Shown: piece by piece, positions 2,615-14,407 of the stretch
How positions within the stretch are numbered: position 1 is the stretch's first letter
Layout of the letters: every line of letters begins with the position of its first letter
Source of the DNA: a virus
Lineage: Duplodnaviria; Heunggongvirae; Uroviricota; Caudoviricetes
Length of the DNA stretch: 14,407 nt
Virus record (IMG/VR): IMGVR_UViG_2874915312_000003
Coordinates: 1-14,407 of that record
Strand: one strand, 5' to 3'
Translations under genes and position numbers: made by a program
The notes under the pieces: model-generated
The model's input: the letters and a program-made list of their open reading frames with translations, nothing else
The model's database searches: none
What the model was told of the DNA's origin: nothing

Positions 2615-3265
2615 TTAAATACTCGCTACGTTATACCAGGTGCCATTAATCAGTTTTTGCAGTGGTCGGTAATACACACCGTCAACGTTATCCGCTGAGT
2701 TACGGCCGGGGCTGTAATACATTTCATGGCCATACCGTACATCCTGTACCCCCTCTGTTCGATATTTATAGCGGGCATCGAAGTTTCCGTAATTTAACGG
2801 AATTACCTGTCCGTTAACAGTGAACACTATGCTGTTATCCGGGTTTCTCTGGCTGAAAAAATGCCAGCCTGAATCATCGCCAAGCTCTGCAACAACAGGC
2901 CTGGATGGATTACCCCACAAATAAAACGCTGCATTTTTCGTGGAGTTGTTGGCGCTGGATAACGTGAATTTTCTGACAGTTCCGGCCTGAATATTCTTAA
3001 AAGCAATAGCCACTCCATTCTGAAAGCGGAATACACGCTGACTATTAGCATAAACATCCAGAATACCGTCTCCATTCTGTTTAAATCCGGTGTCATTATC
3101 ACCAAGAACAATTGAATTCCCCCCCAGGGCGTTCTGAACGCCGATACCCAGCGCACCATTGACCTGCGAACCACCGCCAACAGACACTTTATGCGACATG
3201 GATATTTCACCCGTCCGCAAATTAATGGTGAACGGGCGCAGGGGACCAATATCGCCATTATTCAC
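2615..3265 (-). pseudogene. Tail fibre C-terminal (receptor-binding) domain remnant; 5' portion missing
   Basis: 216-codon ORF with Gly-rich tip-like sequence (HKVSVGGGSQVNGALGIGV...), immediately followed by tfa. Begins with GTG overlapping the holin stop and has no fibre N-terminal domain. First in-frame ATG is at 3199. Confidence 0.45.
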
Positions 3266-3473
3266 CTCTCGCAGCCTTACGCTTATCTTCTCTTATTTTG
3301 AAATACAGATTCGTCAGATAAGTCAGAAGCCCCAGAAGCAGACTTCCCAGCACACCAATCGCAGCCCACTGTGATGGACTGACCTGATCCAACCACTGCA
3401 AAAACCAGTAGCCGGCACTGCCGGCGGCGGTGCCGTAGGCAATGCCCGTTGAAATTTTGTCCATGGATTTCAT
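3258..3473 (-). CDS. Holin, lambdoid prophage EssD/EssQ type (71 aa)
   Basis: MKSMDK...[32 protein letters not shown] closely matches K-12 prophage holin EssD as remembered. SD GGAGGTGA sits upstream of the ATG. Hydrophobic core with a charged C-tail. Confidence 0.7.
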
Positions 3474-3633
3474 AGCCTCACCTCCGCAAATAACGGATGG
3501 CGTAGTTTTACACTGAGAAATGAAAGGGATTTGAAAAGAAAAAAACGCAAAAGCGGGCGAAACGATATATACAGTAAGGAAAGCACTCTATCCAACAAAC
3601 CACCCACAGTTAATCGGAATAAAAGCAGAGTGC

Positions 3634-3706
3634 TTATGAATGATCGCACGCCCGAAGGTTAGTATTTCTGCACAGCAATTTTGCAAAAAAAGGCGATCAT
3701 TCATAA
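3634..3706. repeat. Perfect 14-bp inverted repeat, TTATGAATGATCGC (3634-3647) / GCGATCATTCATAA (3693-3706), 45-nt spacer
   Basis: Read directly from sequence, in the tRNA-holin intergenic region. Confidence 0.8.
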
Positions 3707-3713
3707 CTTAAAC

Positions 3714-3759
3714 GTCTTTCAGTCACTCCGGGATTTCCCATCATCGCAGACTGAAAGAC
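3714..3759. repeat. Perfect 11-bp inverted repeat, GTCTTTCAGTC (3714-3724) / GACTGAAAGAC (3749-3759), 24-nt spacer
   Basis: Read directly from sequence, 7 nt beyond the 3' end of tRNA-Gly on the transcribed strand. Confidence 0.8.
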
Positions 3760-3765
3760 TCTGAC

Positions 3766-3840
<75 letters not shown>

Positions 3841-3843
3841 ATA

Positions 3844-3919
<76 letters not shown>

Positions 3920-3921
3920 GC

Positions 3922-3998
3922 TGGCCCACCACCGAGGACTCGAACCTCGCACCGTCAACTTAGAAGGTTGATGCTCTATCCGGATGAGCTAGTGGTGG
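3922..3998 (-). tRNA. tRNA-Arg (anticodon UCU, reads AGA)
   Basis: Reverse complement CCACCACTAGCTCATCCGGATAGAGCATCAACCTTCTAAGTTGACGGTGCGAGGTTCGAGTCCTCGGTGGTGGGCCA. Perfect 7-bp acceptor stem, anticodon loop CTTCTAA, T-loop TTCGAGT. Confidence 0.75.
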
Positions 3999-3999
3999 T

Positions 4000-4076
4000 T
4001 GGTGGCCCTTGCTGGACTTGAACCAGCGACCTGGCGATTATGAGTCGCTCGCTCTGACCAACTGAGCTAAAGGGCC
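4000..4076 (-). tRNA. tRNA with CAU anticodon, ileX/ileY-like (Ile2/lysidine type more likely than Met)
   Basis: Reverse complement GGCCCTTTAGCTCAGTTGGTCAGAGCGAGCGACTCATAATCGCCAGGTCGCTGGTTCAAGTCCAGCAAGGGCCACCA. Resembles E. coli tRNA-Ile2 as remembered. Ile versus Met identity cannot be settled by eye. Confidence 0.7.
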
Positions 4077-4284: not shown

Positions 4285-4794
4285 TTAAAGCTGCATCAAC
4301 CTTTCCACCAGTTTATCTCTGCGAACAACAAACCAACCATTGGCTCTCGCCAGTTCCAGCCATGACTCAAGGGAAATAACAATATCATCATCCCGTAACT
4401 GAATTGTGGAAACAGTGACACCGCCTCTCTGATAACAGAGAACTCGCGTGTCGTAACTTTTCTGGCATGAAACTGGCGTTGACGGATCCTTTTGACTGAA
4501 ATAGCAGTCTTCCAGTTTTTCGAACACATCCCACGCCTGATCGGTTTCGAGCATTTTGGCGTGGCGTGCTGCGCCTCGTTCTGTCCAGAGGATGAGGGAG
4601 CGGGCTTTGGGTGAAACTGGATTTTGTGAGTAGTTTAAAGCGACCCGCAATTCTTTAAGGTCATTACCAACAACTTTGAAAAAGTGTTTCCCTTCAACGA
4701 AGCGTACTTTGTTCTCATGATGATTCTGGCGAATACGCACCGGCTCAGTGCCGTAAAGCTGCGCCAAAAGTTCGGTGGTAATAACAGGAATCTG
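4285..4794 (-). pseudogene. ORF6N-domain phage antirepressor-like protein, 3' part (interrupted by IS600)
   Basis: Translation ...IPVITTELLAQLYGTEPVRIRQNHHENKVRFVEGKHFFKVVGNDLKELR...SPKARSLILWTERGAARHAKMLETDQAWDVFEKLEDCYF matches the ORF6N consensus as remembered. The first 47 codons of track ORF 4285..4932 are read out of IS600 and are artefactual. Confidence 0.65.
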
Positions 4795-4837
4795 TGAGGT
4801 GTACTGGCAATAGCGGACACTACCATTTGTTCTTTTT

Positions 4838-5656
4838 TTAAGCAGCCATCTGATGATATTTTTCCCTGAAGGCTGCCAGGGAGATATTCCCCAGACGAGA
4901 GTGACGACGCTGACGATTGTAGAAAATCTCAATGTATTCCCGTATTACTGAGATGGCTTCATCCCGGTTATTAAAACGATAGTGGCTCAGGCTCTCATTT
5001 TTCAGCGTTCCCCAGAAGCTTTCCATCGGAGCGTTGTCGTAACAGTTACCTTTACGCGACATTGATGTTTTCAGACCAAACTGCTCCTGTATGACCCGGT
5101 AATCGTATGCGCAGTACTGTGAACCTCGATCAGAGTGGTGGATTAGCCCGGCAGGTGGGCGCTGGCTCCTGAGCGCCATAAACAGGGCTTTACCTGTCAG
5201 CTCTTTTGTCATGCGCTCTCCCATGGCGTAGCCGACAATTTCGCACGTATAAACATCTTTGATGCCAGCGAGGTACAACCATCCCTCCTGTGTGGCAACA
5301 TACGTCAGGTCCGCCACCCAGACCTGATTTGGTGCTGTAGGAGCGAACGTCTGGTTCAGCAGATTTGGCGCAACTGGCAGATTGTGGTTCGGGTTCGTAG
5401 TCGCTCTGAACTTGCGTTTCTGCTTACAGCGTAGCCTTAGCTCCTTACAAAGACGTGCCAGTCGGTCACGACCAACGATGATGCCATTCTCTGCCAGCTC
5501 CGTCTGGAGCCGCCGGGTTCCATATGTTTCGCGAGTGCGGATATGTGCCACCTTAATCTCCAGTTTTAGCCGCTCATCACTTTGTTTTCTGTCTGAGGGT
5601 TCATGCTGTACCCAGTTGTAATAACCGCTCCTGGATACACCAAATACCTGACACAT
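4838..5656 (-). CDS. IS600 orfB (DDE transposase catalytic part, expressed as OrfAB by -1 frameshift)
   Basis: 272-aa ORF with IS3-family integrase-core motifs (WVADLTYV...HSDRGSQY...NAPMESFWGTLK). Confidence 0.8.
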   Translation of the reverse strand: MCQVFGVSRSGYYNWVQHEPSDRKQSDERLKLEIKVAHIRTRETYGTRRLQTELAENGIIVGRDRLARLCKELRLRCKQKRKFRATTNPNHNLPVAPNLLNQTFAPTAPNQVWVADLTYVATQEGWLYLAGIKDVYTCEIVGYAMGERMTKELTGKALFMALRSQRPPAGLIHHSDRGSQYCAYDYRVIQEQFGLKTSMSRKGNCYDNAPMESFWGTLKNESLSHYRFNNRDEAISVIREYIEIFYNRQRRHSRLGNISLAAFREKYHQMAA

Positions 5657-5691
5657 CGCTTCAATGGGAAATTGTTGTCGCCATTGTTCGA

Positions 5692-5994
5692 TTAACGCGT
5701 ATTTTTCAGCGACTCCTGTGCAAAATACGCTGTTGCTTTTTTTAATATATCTCGCTCAAGGCGAGCTTCATTTAACGCCTTACGCAGTTGCAGAATTTCA
5801 GATTCCAGTTCAGCCACCGTGCGGGAACCAGGAGTACCGAGCCCTTTTCTGGCGGCGGTAACCCATTGTCCTAAAGTGCCTTCAGGAAGAGATAATCGGG
5901 AAGCGCCTTCACTGATCGAAAGTTGATTTTCAAGAACCGTTCTGACAGCTTCGGCTTTGAACTCTTTAGAGTAACGTTGGGTTTTTCTGCTCAT
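5692..5994 (-). CDS. IS600 orfA (helix-turn-helix / leucine-zipper transposase N-terminal part)
   Basis: 100-aa ORF starting 64 nt from the IS end, with a coiled-coil ELESEILQLRKALNEARLERDILKKA typical of IS3-family OrfA. Confidence 0.8.
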   Translation of the reverse strand: MSRKTQRYSKEFKAEAVRTVLENQLSISEGASRLSLPEGTLGQWVTAARKGLGTPGSRTVAELESEILQLRKALNEARLERDILKKATAYFAQESLKNTR

Positions 5995-6058
5995 TATTAG
6001 CTCCTTCTGATGCCATTCTATTTCAGGAAGGAGTGTCCGTTAAACTCAGGCTACCTCA

Positions 6059-6109: not shown

Positions 6110-6272
6110 AACGATAACTCCGTACATTTGGAAATTATCGCCACCGACGACGCCAATCGAACTGGTGGCGAACTGTGCAGGGTTGGCGTAACCGGGTACG
6201 GAAACCGGCGAGCCTTTCGGCTCCCCCACACAGCCCGCCATAAATCGCGAATGTGACTGTGCAAACGATATG

Positions 6273-6294
6273 AAAAAAGACGCGGGCGCGTCTC
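6273..6294 (-). terminator. Candidate tR'-like intrinsic terminator
   Basis: Minus strand reads GACGC-GCCC-GCGTC followed by TTTTTT, about 55-75 nt downstream of the candidate late promoter. Confidence 0.4.
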
Positions 6295-6355
6295 ATATCG
6301 CTCCGTAAACATCCGGGACGCCAATCCCGACGCCAGATTTTGCTGGCGCGTGAGG

Positions 6356-6385
6356 AATATAGCCCCGGATAACAGATTGAGTCAA
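6356..6385 (-). promoter_or_regulatory. Candidate late promoter pR' (-35 TTGACT, 18-bp spacer, -10 TATATT)
   Basis: The -35 hexamer at 6385..6380 overlaps the Q stop codon (TGA at 6384..6382). The -10 is at 6361..6356. Lambdoid pR' sits immediately after Q. Confidence 0.5.
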
Positions 6386-6936: not shown

Positions 6937-7223
6937 AAATAACCTTCCTTTCTCCAGATTTCTTGTGTGCGAAAAACACCTTCTGCATGCATCAGGCGTA
7001 ATTCTTCTTTGGTGTAATCGCTGGTTTTTACCCGCCCGTCGATTAAATCGTGGCATGAGCTACAGGCAATCGCTGCCTGCATATCGTGTGGTTTTGTCGC
7101 TGTTCCGCACGTCCCCGCCAGCCTGTAATGCGCCAGCACAGAAGTTTCGGGATTGTGATTGCAGTAGCCAGGGATTCTGACGGTGCACATCTGCCCCCGC
7201 GCCGCTTTACGTAAATCCACCAT
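6933..7223 (-). CDS. Cys-rich nin-region protein (YbcO/DUF1364-like)
   Basis: 96-aa ORF with spaced Cys/His residues (CTVRIPGYCNH...CGTATKPHD...CSSCHD). Start overlaps the upstream stop (TAATG). Family name is from memory. Confidence 0.45.
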   Translation of the reverse strand: MVDLRKAARGQMCTVRIPGYCNHNPETSVLAHYRLAGTCGTATKPHDMQAAIACSSCHDLIDGRVKTSDYTKEELRLMHAEGVFRTQEIWRKEGYL

Positions 7224-7822
7224 TACGCAAACTCCAGTAACTGCGCGGCCACATTTTCGACTTCCTCCGGAGAGGAAAATTTACGGAACAGGATCCAGTT
7301 CCACAGCACATTCAGTACAGATTTATAAACCTGCTGAAACTCGGTTTCGTCCATGTTCGCAAATGCGATAGATTTTGCCCTGCGCCCACGACTACCATCA
7401 GGATAAATATGCTCGGTGTAAAATCCGGCCTGAATGGTTACCCACTCGCGGAAAGCGTCAAACGACTTTAGCAATGCCGTATCCCGGGTTCTGCATGTCG
7501 CAACTGTATTAAGGTATTGCTCTGCGGCATCACTCAGGGCTGGAGTGTGTTCCCGACCTACTGATTCGCACAGGTAATCAACGAAGCCTGATACCAGTTT
7601 TCGTTCGCGAGGCGTGATCGCCCCACCGACCGGAGTCCAGTAATCAAATCCCAGTTGCAGGAGTTTGAAAAAACGCTTGTGGAATGCGTAGTTACGCACA
7701 CGCTTAAAGTCTGCGTGTATCCACTCACCTATTTTGATTTGATGCAAAAAATCGCAACTCTCCGGCGTCGCCGGGAGAAGTAATCCGGAAGAGGTTTGTT
7801 TGACCAGTTGTATATGCGCCAT
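7223..7822 (-). CDS. Lambdoid nin-region protein (DUF1367-like), unknown function
   Basis: 199-aa ORF, translationally coupled to the next gene, located between the Rem-like gene and Q. Confidence 0.45.
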   Translation of the reverse strand: MAHIQLVKQTSSGLLLPATPESCDFLHQIKIGEWIHADFKRVRNYAFHKRFFKLLQLGFDYWTPVGGAITPRERKLVSGFVDYLCESVGREHTPALSDAAEQYLNTVATCRTRDTALLKSFDAFREWVTIQAGFYTEHIYPDGSRGRRAKSIAFANMDETEFQQVYKSVLNVLWNWILFRKFSSPEEVENVAAQLLEFA

Positions 7823-7955
7823 CGTAGTTCTCCGCTGGCGCAGTAGAATGGGTGTTCAGCCCGTTATGTAGTATACCAGAATTAATGCCAATACTAACAG
7901 GGTAATGCTGCCAACTTACTGATTTAGTGTATGATGGTGATTTTAAGGTGCTTGC

Positions 7956-8231
7956 GTGGCTTCCATTTCCATCAGATGTCCTTCCTGCTCCGCTACTGAA
8001 GGCGTGGTGCGTAACGGCAAAAGCACTGCCGGGCATCAGCGCTATCTCTGCTCTCATTGCCGTAAAACATGGCAACTACAGTTCACTTACACCGCCTCTC
8101 AGCCCGGTACGCACCAGAAAATCATTGATATGGCCATGAATGGCGTCGGATGTCGCGCCAGTGCACGCATTATGGGCGTTGGCCTCAACACGGTTTTACG
8201 TCACTTAAAAAACTCAGGCCGCAGTCGGTAA
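7956..8231 (+). CDS. insA: IS1 InsA
   Basis: [40 protein letters not shown]..., 91 aa. Confidence 0.9.
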
Positions 8232-8653
8232 CCTCGCGCATACAACCGGGCAGTGATGTGATTGTCTGCGCTGAAATGGACGAACATTGGGGCTACGTCG
8301 GTGCTAAATCACGTCAGCGCTGGCTGTTTTACGCGTATGACAGGATACGGAGGACGGTTGTGGCGCACGTCTTCGGTGAACGCACTCTGGCCACACTGGA
8401 GCGTCTTCTGAGCCTGCTGTCGGCCTTTGAGGTCGTGGTATGGATGACGGATGGCTGGCCGCTGTATGAATCACGCCTGAAGGGAAAGCTGCACGTTATC
8501 AGCAAGCGTTACACTCAGCGCATTGAGCGACATAATCTGAATCTGAGACAACATCTGGCAAGGCTGGGACGGAAGTCACTGTCGTTCTCAAAATCGGTGG
8601 AGCTGCATGACAAGGTCATCGGGCATTATCTGAACATAAAACACTATCAGTAA
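8150..8653 (+). CDS. insB: IS1 insB reading frame (expressed as InsAB' fusion by -1 frameshift at the A6C motif near 8207)
   Basis: 167-codon ORF overlapping the insA 3' end. TTAAAAAACTC slippery motif present. Confidence 0.85.
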
Positions 8654-8752
8654 GTTGGAGTCATTACCTACTAACAGGATGTTCTGACTCGCAATTCGGT
8701 AATGCTGCCAACTTACTGATTTAGTGTATGATGGTGATTTTAAGGTGCTTGC

Positions 8753-9028
8753 GTGGCTTCCATTTCCATCAGATGTCCTTCCTGCTCCGCTACTGAAGGC
8801 GTGGTGCGTAACGGCAAAAGCACTGCCGGACATCAGCGCTATCTCTGCTCTCATTGCCGTAAAACATGGCAACTACAGTTCACTTACACCGCCTCTCAGC
8901 CCGGTACGCACCAGAAAATCATTGATATGGCCATGAATGGCGTCGGATGTCGCGCCAGTGCACGCATTATGGGCGTTGGCCTCAACAGGGTTTTACGTCA
9001 CTTAAAAAACTCAGGCCGCAGTCGGTAA
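8753..9028 (+). CDS. insA: IS1 InsA (copy 2; T->R substitution relative to copies 1 and 3)
   Basis: GLNRVLRHL versus GLNTVLRHL in the other copies. Confidence 0.9.
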
Positions 9029-9450
9029 CCTCGCGCATACAACCGGGCAGTGATGTGATTGTCTGCGCTGAAATGGACGAACATTGGGGCTACGTCGGTG
9101 CTAAATCACGTCAGCGCTGGCTGTTTTACGCGTATGACAGGATACGGAGGACGGTTGTGGCGCACGTCTTCGGTGAACGCACTCTGGCCACACTGGAGCG
9201 TCTTCTGAGCCTGCTGTCGGCCTTTGAGGTCGTGGTATGGATGACGGATGGCTGTCCGCTGTATGAATCACGCCTGAAGGGAAAGCTGCACGTTATCAGC
9301 AAGCGTTACACTCAGCGCATTGAGCGACATAATCTGAATCTGAGACAACATCTGGCAAGGCTGGGACGGAAGTCACTGTCGTTCTCAAAATCGGTGGAGC
9401 TGCATGACAAGGTCATCGGGCATTATCTGAACATAAAACACTATCAGTAA
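8947..9450 (+). CDS. insB: IS1 insB frame (copy 2; W->C substitution, DGCPLYES versus DGWPLYES)
   Basis: Direct comparison of the three copies within the window. Confidence 0.85.
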
Positions 9451-9698
9451 GTTGGAGTCATTACCCGCAATTCATCCAGCAGTTTATCATTTCCCATAAT
9501 GTCACTTACCCTCATCGGTAAAAAAATTGCCTTTCGACCATTACGATACATTATTGATTTTGGGGTTTCAGGGAAGTAATCCATTTCGACTATAACTGAC
9601 AGGTCATCACGACGTATGACTGCGTATTTGCTACTAAATAGTTTCTTTATTTTTTCCACGATGCCTCCAGGTTTATAAGTACAAACGGTTATATCCAC
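9444..9698 (-). CDS. Rem-like small prophage protein; last 5 native codons replaced by 6 IS1-derived codons
   Basis: GTG start at 9698. Removing both IS1 copies and one copy of each duplication restores an 83-codon ORF ending ...LLDELRVRTSC, with its stop inside the copy-1 target duplication. Position (upstream of Q and nin proteins, downstream of hokD) mirrors rem in K-12 Qin. Identity to Rem is from memory. Confidence 0.5.
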
Positions 9699-9934: not shown

Positions 9935-10090
9935 TTACTCCTCAGGTTCGTAAGCTGTGAAGACAGCGACCTCCGTCTGGCCGGTTCGGATTCGTACCTC
10001 GCAGAGGTCTTTCCTCGTTACCAGTGCCGTCACTATGACGGTTAAACAGATGACGATCAGGGCGATTAACATCGCCTTTTGCTGCTTCAT
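9935..10090 (-). CDS. hokD: Hok/Gef-family type I toxin, HokD (RelF)-like
   Basis: 51-aa MKQQKAMLIALIVICLTVIVTALVTRKDLCEVRIRTGQTEVAVFTAYEPEE matches K-12 HokD as remembered. SD AAGGAG is 8 nt upstream. Track ORF 9935..10147 adds an in-frame 19-codon upstream extension (MSHKCRLASYVPKGKEKQA). Confidence 0.8.
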   Translation of the reverse strand: MKQQKAMLIALIVICLTVIVTALVTRKDLCEVRIRTGQTEVAVFTAYEPEE

Positions 10091-10431
10091 AGCCTGCTTC
10101 TCCTTGCCTTTCGGCACGTAAGAGGCTAACCTACATTTGTGAGACATAGATTGGGCCTCAGATTAATGTTAAGCGTCTTGCAGGACGCGTAATGTTAACT
10201 GGGGCTTTTCTCTGTCTGCCTTACAGTGGCATGCCCGAGGCAGACAGCCTCAAGCACCCGCAGCAATCTTACCGATACCGATAAGAAAACGCTATTTTTT
10301 ATTGCCAGCACCTTCTATCCAGGCTAATTTATCTGCGTCAGAACGGCGCAATGCGCTCGCCTGAGATACGTTTACTTGCCATGGTAACAACAGGTAACGG
10401 CAATTGCTGTTTCTGTTTTGTTTCCTTCAAA

Positions 10432-10464: not shown

Positions 10465-10548
10465 TTAACCCCAACGGCAAATCGAATACACCACCATCGC
10501 CATCGCCATCGCAATTCCTACCGTGGTGAATGCCTCAGGCCAGGTCAT
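10465..10548 (-). CDS. Candidate 27-aa hydrophobic peptide (MTWPEAFTTVGIAMAMAMVVYSICRWG)
   Basis: Not in the ORF track (below size cutoff). ATG at 10548 has SD GGAGGTG (5-nt spacer) and overlaps the stop of the upstream frame as ATGA. TAA at 10467-10465 is followed at once by the hairpin. Contains three tandem GCGATG codon pairs (plus-strand CATCGC x3 at 10495-10512). Confidence 0.35.
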   Translation of the reverse strand: MTWPEAFTTVGIAMAMAMVVYSICRWG

Positions 10549-10906
10549 TGATTCACCTCCTGCGGTGGTTCCGGTAGCGGCATCCAGTGAGTTGAGCTCT
10601 CTACTTCAACGCCGTCTTTGTCCACAAAAGCCATCTTATTCCCGCCACGAGTGGGGCAAAAAACCTTATCCCAGGAACCGGGGAATACATTCCCGAGATC
10701 ATCGAGAAGAATCACATCGCAATATTCAGCAGGAACTGCATCACTACAGCTTATCCAGCTAGAGTTACCGGAGAGTTGCCAGCCTTACGCATGGCCATTT
10801 CCACGATTTCAACCATATCTCCTGGTGGAATTTTACAAAGTTGCCCAATACATTTCTGCTGCCTGGCATATTCGAGAATGTGCTCCAATTTGGTTCGATT
10901 AATCAT
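10545..10906 (-). pseudogene. Gene split into two frames: 51-aa N-terminal ORF (10906..10751) plus 79-codon open frame (10784..10545), probable frameshift
   Basis: Frame A MINRTKLEHILEYARQQKCIGQLCKIPPGDMVEIVEMAMRKAGNSPVTLAG has SD AAGGGAG and overlaps the upstream stop (TAATG). Frame B ...SCSDAVPAEYCDVILLDDLGNVFPGSWDKVFCPTRGGNKMAFVDKDGVEVESSTHWMPLPEPPQEVNQ has no plausible start of its own. The frames overlap at 10751-10784 around a direct repeat AACTCT x2. Confidence 0.35.
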
Positions 10907-11933: not shown

Positions 11934-12189
11934 ATCAGCTTTCCTTATACGGATTAATTTTATTGTGCAGTGTGTTGAATGACGCCCATACCACGTCGTT
12001 ATACAATTCAATAACTGGCTCAATTATTTTTCCGATTATCCAGACAAAAATTAGCGGGGATATCGGTGTCATCAACACGATAAACAGAATGAGAAACAGG
12101 AATTCTGTTGTTCTACTCTTTCGCGGATATTTTTGGTAATGCTGCCAACTTACTGATTTAGTGTATGATGGTGATTTTAAGGTGCTTGC

Positions 12190-12465
12190 GTGGCTTCCAT
12201 TTCCATCAGATGTCCTTCCTGCTCCGCTACTGAAGGCGTGGTGCGTAACGGCAAAAGCACTGCCGGACATCAGCGCTATCTCTGCTCTCATTGCCGTAAA
12301 ACATGGCAACTACAGTTCACTTACACCGCCTCTCAGCCCGGTACGCACCAGAAAATCATTGATATGGCCATGAATGGCGTCGGATGTCGCGCCAGTGCAC
12401 GCATTATGGGCGTTGGCCTCAACACGGTTTTACGTCACTTAAAAAACTCAGGCCGCAGTCGGTAA
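12190..12465 (+). CDS. insA: IS1 InsA (copy 3)
   Basis: Protein identical to copy 1 InsA. Confidence 0.9.
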
Positions 12466-12887
12466 CCTCGCGCATACAACCGGGCAGTGATGTGATTGTC
12501 TGCGCTGAAATGGACGAACATTGGGGCTACGTCGGTGCTAAATCACGTCAGCGCTGGCTGTTTTACGCGTATGACAGGATACGGAGGACGGTTGTGGCGC
12601 ACGTCTTCGGTGAACGCACTCTGGCCACACTGGAGCGTCTTCTGAGCCTGCTGTCGGCCTTTGAGGTCGTGGTATGGATGACGGATGGCTGGCCGCTGTA
12701 TGAATCACGCCTGAAGGGAAAGCTGCACGTTATCAGCAAGCGTTACACTCAGCGCATTGAGCGACATAATCTGAATCTGAGACAACATCTGGCAAGGCTG
12801 GGACGGAAGTCACTGTCGTTCTCAAAATCGGTGGAGCTGCATGACAAGGTCATCGGGCATTATCTGAACATAAAACACTATCAGTAA
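12384..12887 (+). CDS. insB: IS1 insB frame (copy 3)
   Basis: Protein identical to copy 1. Confidence 0.85.
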
Positions 12888-13022
12888 GTTGGAGTCATTA
12901 CCGATATTTTTTTCTAAATAATGTAACCATTCATTACCGCCCTTTCGGGCGGTCTCCTGATGATTTGAGGGTGCAGAAATCCCTCCGGTTAGAGATTAAA
13001 TTTTTAACAGTGCTAAATTTAA

Positions 13023-13256: not shown

Positions 13257-14407
<1,151 letters not shown>

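Follow-up and report, generated by a model that had tools for sequence, protein, structure and literature searches.

Two copies of the insertion sequence IS1, lying 29 bp apart in a prophage of Shigella flexneri, and a third copy in the same prophage very probably represent independent, ordered simple insertions into a decaying element. The original prediction had proposed two independent hits in the same short stretch. This is borne out by the fact that each copy has its own target duplication, and the occurrence of copy 1 alone in nine other genomes now also gives the order of the events. Nothing in the data speaks against independent insertion.

The window, i.e., the whole stretch of 14,407 nucleotides that was analysed, is an exact substring of CP026803.1 of S. 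flexneri 89-141. This accession represents the chromosome of the strain, which has the serotype Y (PMC9455713).

Three IS1 copies and their target sites

By every structural criterion the element is IS1. A repeat search, an alignment and a script agree that all three copies are exactly 768 bp long and are found in direct orientation on the plus strand (Table 1), in line with the original prediction that they form direct repeats. The 23-nt terminal inverted repeats IRL and IRR are identical at 20 of their 23 positions, and a promoter-like site lies inside IRL, where the weak IS1 promoter is described. The 91-aa InsA product contains the zinc-ribbon and the HTH (PF03811, E 5.9e-20, and PF12759, E 4.9e-30), while the insB' frame is covered by the full profile of PF03400 (DDE_Tnp_IS1, E 1.1e-73). 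All three copies share the A6C slippery motif AAAAAAC at element position 307, and a simulated -1 frameshift resulted in an open InsAB' fusion of 232 aa. The arrangement of insA and insB' with a -1 frameshift at A6C matches the architecture that has been described for IS1 (PMC12428005).

IS1A and IS1B of E. coli K-12 and the expanded iso-IS1 elements of Shigella have the same length of 768 bp, imperfect inverted repeats of about 23-30 bp and target duplications of 8-9 bp, and they share the overlap of insA with insB', the A6C -1 frameshift and the 232-aa InsAB' with its DDE domain. However, the copies described here have diverged by about 9% from the annotated E. coli IS1A (68 differences) and IS1B (72 differences), and in contrast to IS1A and IS1B, copy 2 carries the exchanges T79R and W168C.

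The coordinates and the flanks of the neighbouring copies confirm the proposed arrangement of two IS1 elements 29 bp apart, one with a 9-bp and the other with an 8-bp duplication. The gap between copies 1 and 2 (8669-8697) consists of the two inner duplications and 12 bp. It contains a strain-specific base at 8682, a T, which is a C in the other strains examined. Copy 3 has the 5' end of a DUF4014 gene as its target, 3.4 kb away from the pair. Of 26 duplication-bearing IS1 copies in the fetched loci, 19 have duplications of 9 bp and seven have duplications of 8 bp, and therefore the 8-bp duplication of copy 2 is normal for IS1.

Table 1. Positions in the window of the IS1 copies, their target duplications and junctions, and the neighbouring prophage genes.
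Feature	Position	Strand	Remarks
DUF1367 gene	7223-7822	-	first gene downstream of the IS1 pair, prophage early-right (nin-like) operon
IS1 copy 1, left duplication	7892-7900		TACTAACAG, 9 bp; single copy in empty sites
IS1 copy 1, left junction			AATGCCAATACTAACAGGGTAATGCTGCC
IS1 copy 1	7901-8668	+	768 bp; IRL 7901-7923, insA 7956-8231, IRR 8646-8668
IS1 copy 1, A6C frameshift motif	8207		
IS1 copy 1, right duplication	8669-8677		TACTAACAG, 9 bp
Native target DNA between the duplications	8678-8689		12 bp; former last codons of the small ORF, now severed
IS1 copy 2, left duplication	8690-8697		CGCAATTC, 8 bp
IS1 copy 2, left junction			CTGACTCGCAATTCGGTAATGCTGCC
IS1 copy 2	8698-9465	+	768 bp; A6C motif intact at 9004
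IS1 copy 2, right junction			GAGTCATTACCCGCAATTCATCCAGC
IS1 copy 2, right duplication	9466-9473		CGCAATTC, 8 bp; codons E-L-R of the small ORF, minus strand
Small prophage ORF (phrog_1813)	9444-9659	-	function unknown; now 71 aa
hokD/sok toxin-antitoxin locus	9935-10259	-	directly upstream of the small ORF
Hok ORF	9935-10147	-	
sok RNA	10085-10259	-	
IS1 copy 3, left duplication	12126-12134		GATATTTTT, 9 bp
IS1 copy 3	12135-12902	+	768 bp; reference allele for base comparisons
IS1 copy 3, right duplication	12903-12911		GATATTTTT, 9 bp

The prophage is a defective lambdoid prophage, which was already crippled. The DUF1367 gene is followed by YbcO and then by a Q-like DUF1133 gene. On the transcribed strand, the IS1 pair separates the early genes from DUF1367-YbcO-Q. 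Both copies are antisense to the early operon, and 1.57 kb of IS1 now stand between the DUF1367 gene and the genes upstream of it. Two further lesions were found. An IS600 at 4795-6058 separates the Q-like gene from the late genes; it has the Q-like gene on one side and an antirepressor-like gene and tRNAs on the other. In addition, the holin gene is fused directly to tail-fibre genes.

Empty sites and the order of the insertions

The empty site was reconstructed by the deletion of copies 1 and 2 together with one duplication each, and the resulting sequence of 1248 bp was searched against 5,426 complete E. coli genomes. The reconstruction aligns ungapped, in a single piece and over 100% of its length with E. 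coli prophages, with an identity of up to 98.8%, and in 145 of the 5,426 genomes a single place accounts for at least 80% of it. When it is aligned with E. coli STEC308, TACTAACAG and CGCAATTC each occur once and in their native order. For copy 3, a gap-free alignment of 771 nt across the junction was obtained with S. flexneri strains that do not contain this copy. Empty sites are thus available from E. coli for copies 1 and 2 and from S. flexneri for copies 2 and 3. Because the reconstructed empty sites align without gaps to uninterrupted relatives, the duplications are real and not chance matches.

The left junction of copy 1 and the right junction of copy 2 are absent from all 5,426 complete E. 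coli genomes, and both are Shigella-specific. The junction IRR-29 bp-IRL had no exact match in a genome contig collection that holds one genome per species. Matches of the whole region in a megablast search that pair IS1 with hokD were rejected, since in these cases IS1 is located on the other side of hokD, at a different site.

The neighbouring DUF1367 protein led to ten listed places, which were read for the presence or absence of the copies. Nine of the ten contain a single IS1, whose insertion site is identical to that of copy 1, as are its 9-bp duplication and its orientation. These nine genomes have an intact 29-bp stretch with a single CGCAATTC, and they have no copy 3. Four of them are named S. 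flexneri, namely 2013C-3749 (serotype 3b), AR-0425 (serotype 2a), AUSMDU00010535 (serotype 2a), and FDAARGOS_535 (serotype 1b). The tenth place, in a 5.1-Mb genome, is an empty site. A comparison with strains lacking the insertions had been suggested as a check, and it uncovered both empty sites and copy-1-only strains, i.e., a presence/absence polymorphism of the IS1 copies among strains. The copy-1-only strains cannot have arisen from a doublet by recombination between copies 1 and 2, because they have kept both copies of TACTAACAG and the native spacer. As copy 1 is shared by nine other genomes, it is ancestral, while the 89-141 lineage acquired copies 2 and 3 recently, a timing that is based on the sample of ten places and not on a phylogeny.

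The copy-2 insertion can also be followed via the small ORF, the 71-aa product of which is fused to IS1. In a large gene-position collection this product occurs on only two contigs, CP026803.1 and a draft contig of 2.8 kb. At the junctions of copy 2 and copy 3 the draft contig runs into IS1 and ends there, and it represents independent support from a second assembly.

The pair is best explained by two separate simple transpositions of a Shigella iso-form of IS1 into a small AT-rich prophage ORF. In the older event copy 1 would have been inserted by a 9-bp staggered cut spanning the stop codon of the ORF. The duplication would have kept the ORF intact, IS1 would have come to lie between the ORF and the DUF1367-YbcO-Q genes, and copy 1 would have been passed on to several S. 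flexneri lineages. In the more recent event, in the 89-141 lineage, an IS1 would have been inserted 29 bp away into the last codons of the ORF, with an 8-bp duplication, and the C-terminal VRTSC would have been replaced by VMTPTY, read from the right end of IS1. A third event in the same lineage would have brought copy 3 into the DUF4014 gene. With its one ancestral and two lineage-specific insertions, the locus offers a clean and dated case of nested accumulation of IS1 in a decaying S. flexneri prophage, and the three junctions could serve as markers of the 89-141 sublineage.

Chance, targeting and other origins of the pair

Uniform placement of about 80-115 IS1 copies, a number that was derived from PMC7373316, in a genome of 4.48 Mb predicts 0.04-0.12 pairs within 29-40 bp per genome. 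A distance of 29 bp is therefore mildly unusual for one genome, but unremarkable across the species. In addition, the DNA effectively open to insertion amounts to less than the entire genome, because insertions are tolerated mostly in dispensable DNA and because the site is AT-rich, with a GC content of 39-42% at the target versus 49.5% for the window. In S. flexneri the ratio of genic to intergenic IS insertions is 0.20 (PMC7373316).

Instead of chance and a permissive AT-rich site, targeting could explain why the second copy lies so close to a resident IS1. The second IS1 might have been drawn to the AT-rich stretch or to the end of the resident IS1, and the means that can be proposed are the action of transposase or InsA at the inverted repeats or a strong cis preference of the InsAB' of copy 1. 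The low number of pairs predicted by uniform placement and the low local GC content would fit to such a hot spot, as would the preference of the IS1 transposase for action in cis (PMC12903888). The same ORF of about 70 codons was hit elsewhere by a third, independent IS1, as one protein (P0009) shows. In this protein an antisense read-out of an IS1 left end is joined to ...RRDDLSV..., with the element in the same orientation as here and about 145 bp upstream of the site used by copy 2. Furthermore, a metagenome scaffold (L038) breaks exactly after GAATTGCG, which is the insertion point of copy 2. However, P0009 comes without a contig, and the distal part of L038 has no E. coli match, so that this scaffold is probably chimeric. 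With thousands of S. flexneri genomes one such pair is expected somewhere, and the bias towards dispensable DNA shrinks the target and raises the chance rate further. None of the 5,426 complete E. coli genomes contains either junction, in contrast to the 145 that are uninterrupted, and the three base differences between the neighbouring copies disfavour copy 2 as a direct daughter of the present copy 1. Taken together, targeting is rather unlikely at this site, and it is clearly unlikely that IS1 preferentially re-inserts a few tens of bases or less from the end of a resident copy, or into this AT-rich ORF in particular, as a form of local homing or hot-spot behaviour. If it were true, the cis-acting InsAB' of the neighbour could assist such re-insertion and could keep copy 2 mobile, which is possibly defective in DNA binding owing to T79R in the HTH, and deletions and inversions could arise unusually readily at the inside-out IRR-29 bp-IRL junction.

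It is extremely unlikely that the doublet was generated in a single event, be it through insertion of a dimer or a composite of IS1, through replicative transposition of copy 1 within the same molecule, or through a tandem duplication of biological or assembly origin. The copies are indeed adjacent, have the same orientation and are 99.6% identical, and IS1 transposition has been described to be mainly replicative (PMC12428005). But each copy has a different duplication, the outer flanks are unlike (TACTAACAG versus CGCAATTC), and the 29 bp between the copies are native target DNA in its native order. Intramolecular replicative transposition leads to deletions or inversions with split duplications. 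This route would not yield two direct copies with intact pairs of duplications. The copy-1-only state in nine genomes effectively refutes a single event, and the three base differences together with the independent draft assembly exclude a collapsed or duplicated assembly artefact. A tandem dimer or circle junction of the IS, in which abutting IRR and IRL ends are a few non-native bases apart, was also rejected, the spacer being 29 bp long and colinear with the uninterrupted target. A composite transposon of the Tn9 type has the same two direct IS1 copies with intact outer ends, and joint mobilisation of the pair is possible in principle. Unlike in Tn9, only 29 bp of native DNA lie between the copies, and a single duplication around the unit is missing. 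Instead, each IS1 has its own pair, with TACTAACAG and CGCAATTC as the outer flanks. The own duplications and the differing outer flanks show that the pair did not arrive as a transposon.

Finally, the insertions could have been selected, because they silence the small ORF or block read-through to Q and the late genes and thereby stabilise a harmful prophage. The position of the pair on the transcribed strand, after the early genes and ahead of DUF1367-YbcO-Q, and the retention of copy 1 across lineages would be in agreement with this idea. Yet copy 1 spares the ORF and copy 2 changes only its last five residues, the prophage has other inactivating lesions (the IS600 and the holin-tail-fibre fusion), and any neutral fixed insertion is expected to persist across lineages. 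Selected inactivation is therefore very unlikely, and the independent, ordered insertions discussed above are probably neutral.

Effects on the small ORF, allele differences and consequences

The small ORF has a mechanical form of 84 aa (9444-9698), but its likely start is the GTG at 9659, which is preceded by GGAGG. The 84-aa form has no record in the gene-position collection, in which the gene callers start at the internal GTG. According to gene callers and RefSeq the uninterrupted ORF encodes 70 aa and has the native C-terminus ...DELRVRTSC. The native stop codon TAG (minus strand, 8671-8673) is located inside the right duplication of copy 1, on the gene side, and its duplicate is found in the left duplication (minus strand, 7894-7896). 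With its stop codon thus preserved, the ORF yields the same product after the insertion of copy 1, and copy-1-only strains encode the full 70-aa protein. In contrast, copy 2 interrupts an Arg codon six codons before the stop. The last 22 nt and the stop codon of the present 71-aa form are supplied by the IRR of copy 2, and the last five residues VRTSC are changed to VMTPTY. The earlier view that both IS1 copies had been inserted into the 3' end of the gene thus holds for copy 2, which displaces the last five codons, but overstates the case of copy 1, which leaves the ORF intact.

The gene had also been regarded as Rem-like. A BLASTP comparison with the annotated E. coli protein Rem (WP_000980999-type) yielded no alignment at E <= 100, and the two proteins belong to different PHROG families, both of unknown function (phrog_1813 for the small ORF and phrog_340 for Rem). 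Homologues of the small ORF are named only "hypothetical protein". Both the small ORF and Rem of the E. coli prophages of the Qin type have about 70-83 codons and are located on the same strand directly downstream of hokD in a lambdoid prophage. The order is hokD and then rem in E. coli 20AR0192 and 55989, and hokD and then the small ORF in the window. The likeness to Rem is therefore one of position and not of homology.

Copies 1 and 2 differ at three bases. Compared to copy 3, copy 2 has C291G, resulting in T79R in the HTH of InsA and InsAB', and G558T, resulting in W168C in InsAB'. These are the two missense changes that had been noticed in copy 2. Copies 1 and 3 had been treated as alike, but they are separated by A133G, a private change of copy 1 (position 8033 of the window), which is silent in insA.

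The 97-aa C-terminal product with W168C was retrieved from 101 blocks of the gene-position collection. The W168C copies that were read occupy at least eight distinct chromosomal loci, and four of them have their own 8-9-bp duplications. The presence of such copies at these loci, several with duplications of their own, shows that G558T is an established, transposing allele. Of the orthologous elements at the copy-1 site, those of two strains have 558T and the remaining ones 558G, and positions 141, 262 and 668 vary as well. Mean divergence between S. flexneri lineages is 0.089% (PMC7373316), and the variation among the copy-1 orthologs exceeds the expectation for 768 bp at this level. It is likely explained by gene conversion among IS1 copies or by recurrent mutation. 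C291G was found in none of the other IS1 copies examined, and no record of InsA with T79R was found, in a collection in which insA is not called in the CP0267xx-CP0268xx assemblies. C291G/T79R is probably a private mutation. It had been concluded that copy 2 came from a different source copy. The common G558T does fit to a donor with 558T, but since G558T is polymorphic among the orthologous copy-1 elements, the state of this allele is not a safe marker of donor or descent. This is a general caution for IS genealogies: a donor copy cannot be identified from one or two base differences, because orthologous IS1 elements at the same site vary from strain to strain, at positions that are also polymorphic in the IS1 population.

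From established IS1 biology, the pair should terminate transcription of the early operon before Q and should be polar on DUF1367-YbcO-Q. Copy 1 alone would already be enough for this effect, which is probably inconsequential, because the prophage is already defective.

The locus represents ordinary IS1 expansion in a decaying prophage, a known kind of event in a public, annotated genome. About 130-240 IS insertions have been detected in S. flexneri, 42-59% of which are IS1 (PMC7373316). IS1 is the main expanding IS, and S. flexneri lineages share about a third of the IS sites (PMC7373316). The analysis of IS expansion in Shigella, with prophage decay, has revealed the same pattern of shared versus lineage-specific sites (Hawkey et al., 2020, PMC7373316). 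There is no substantive difference to the locus described here, which is one instance of this process.

As three direct repeats, the copies are plausible, potential RecA substrates for homologous deletion. Recombination between copies 1 and 2 is predicted to remove 797 bp, and recombination with copy 3 would lead to deletions of 3437 bp or 4234 bp, including hok/sok. In the fetched loci, 10 of 36 IS1 copies lack any duplication, which indicates that IS1-mediated rearrangement is frequent in these genomes.

Further breaks and base changes around the small ORF

The small minus-strand ORF (phrog_1813, 9444-9659), whose last codons have been displaced by the second IS1 copy (copy 2, 8698-9465), has also been hit elsewhere. 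The metaclust protein P0009 (100 aa) consists of an antisense read-out of an IS1 left end fused to the small-ORF residues RRDDLSV..., and it represents an independent IS1 insertion in the small ORF in another sample; this lies some 145 bp further upstream than copy 2, equivalent to about window position 9612-9616. In a metagenomic scaffold (L038, ENA ERZ16268119 scaffold_41346, 331-345) the small ORF can be followed up to GAATTGCG, the exact insertion point of copy 2. Past GAATTGCG a Crp-like regulator gene follows, and a match to E. coli was not found for this part. L038 probably represents a chimera joined at the boundary of an IS.

The 12-bp spacer of native DNA between the duplications of the first two IS1 copies (8678-8689) contains a single base difference, namely, a T at 8682, whereas E. 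coli STEC308, with an uninterrupted site, and the nine genomes that carry only the first copy (copy 1, 7901-8668) have a C. This position now lies within the orphaned piece severed by copy 2; had that end of the small ORF stayed attached, the T would have put Thr in place of Ala in its native C-terminus. The DUF551 gene (10545-10906, minus) is split into ORFs of 51 aa and 56 aa, in contrast to one ORF of 121 aa in the copy-1-only strains, likely due to a frameshift or nonsense change particular to the strain of the window.

IS1 allele variation and rearrangement

The IS1 elements orthologous to copy 1 (loci L028-L037, locus positions 3155-3922) vary from strain to strain, at positions 141, 262, 558, and 668 as well as by 1-nt indels. 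The 558T allele is present at many further loci besides the copy-1 site. Such a pattern suggests that IS1 copies have undergone gene conversion with one another. A second close IS1 pair was found in a prophage tail-fibre region of another genome (L015, CP026810.1); its copies (1542-2309 and 3032-3799) are inverted, 722 bp apart, and both lack a duplication. Among the fetched loci, 10 of 36 IS1 copies are without duplications, which indicates that IS1-mediated rearrangement is frequent.

Other mobile elements and prophage remnants

Features in the left part of the window
Feature	Position	Strand	Source
Holin gene	3258-3473		
Four prophage-borne tRNA genes (anticodons CAT, TCT, TGT, TCC)	3766-4076	minus	
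IS600-like IS3-family element	4795-6058	minus	
orfB of IS600-like element	4838-5656	minus	
orfA of IS600-like element	5692-5994	minus	
C4 antisense RNA	6161-6245	minus	Rfam
isrK	6273-6349	minus	Rfam
c4 a1/b1 target	6310-6362	minus	Rfam

The three Rfam features, directly downstream of the Q-like DUF1133 gene, form a P1/P7-type antirepressor control module. With the Q-like gene region on one side and the ORF6N antirepressor-like gene (4285-4932) on the other, the IS600-like element now parts the module from this gene. Its 32-nt end sequence occurs again at 14376-14407, the edge of the window; there it cuts short an IS911-like element (13257-14375), and this is a nested insertion of one IS into another.

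Of the prophage's genes for lysis, head, and tail, most have been deleted. The tRNA cluster sits upstream of the holin gene. In the stretch 2615-3473, what comes straight after the holin gene is the C-terminal fragment of a tail fibre, then a gene for tail-fibre assembly and a phage_tail_N gene. Part of the tRNA-Thr gene is matched at 75% identity by a 32-nt stretch (6144-6175) that overlaps with the match to C4 RNA.
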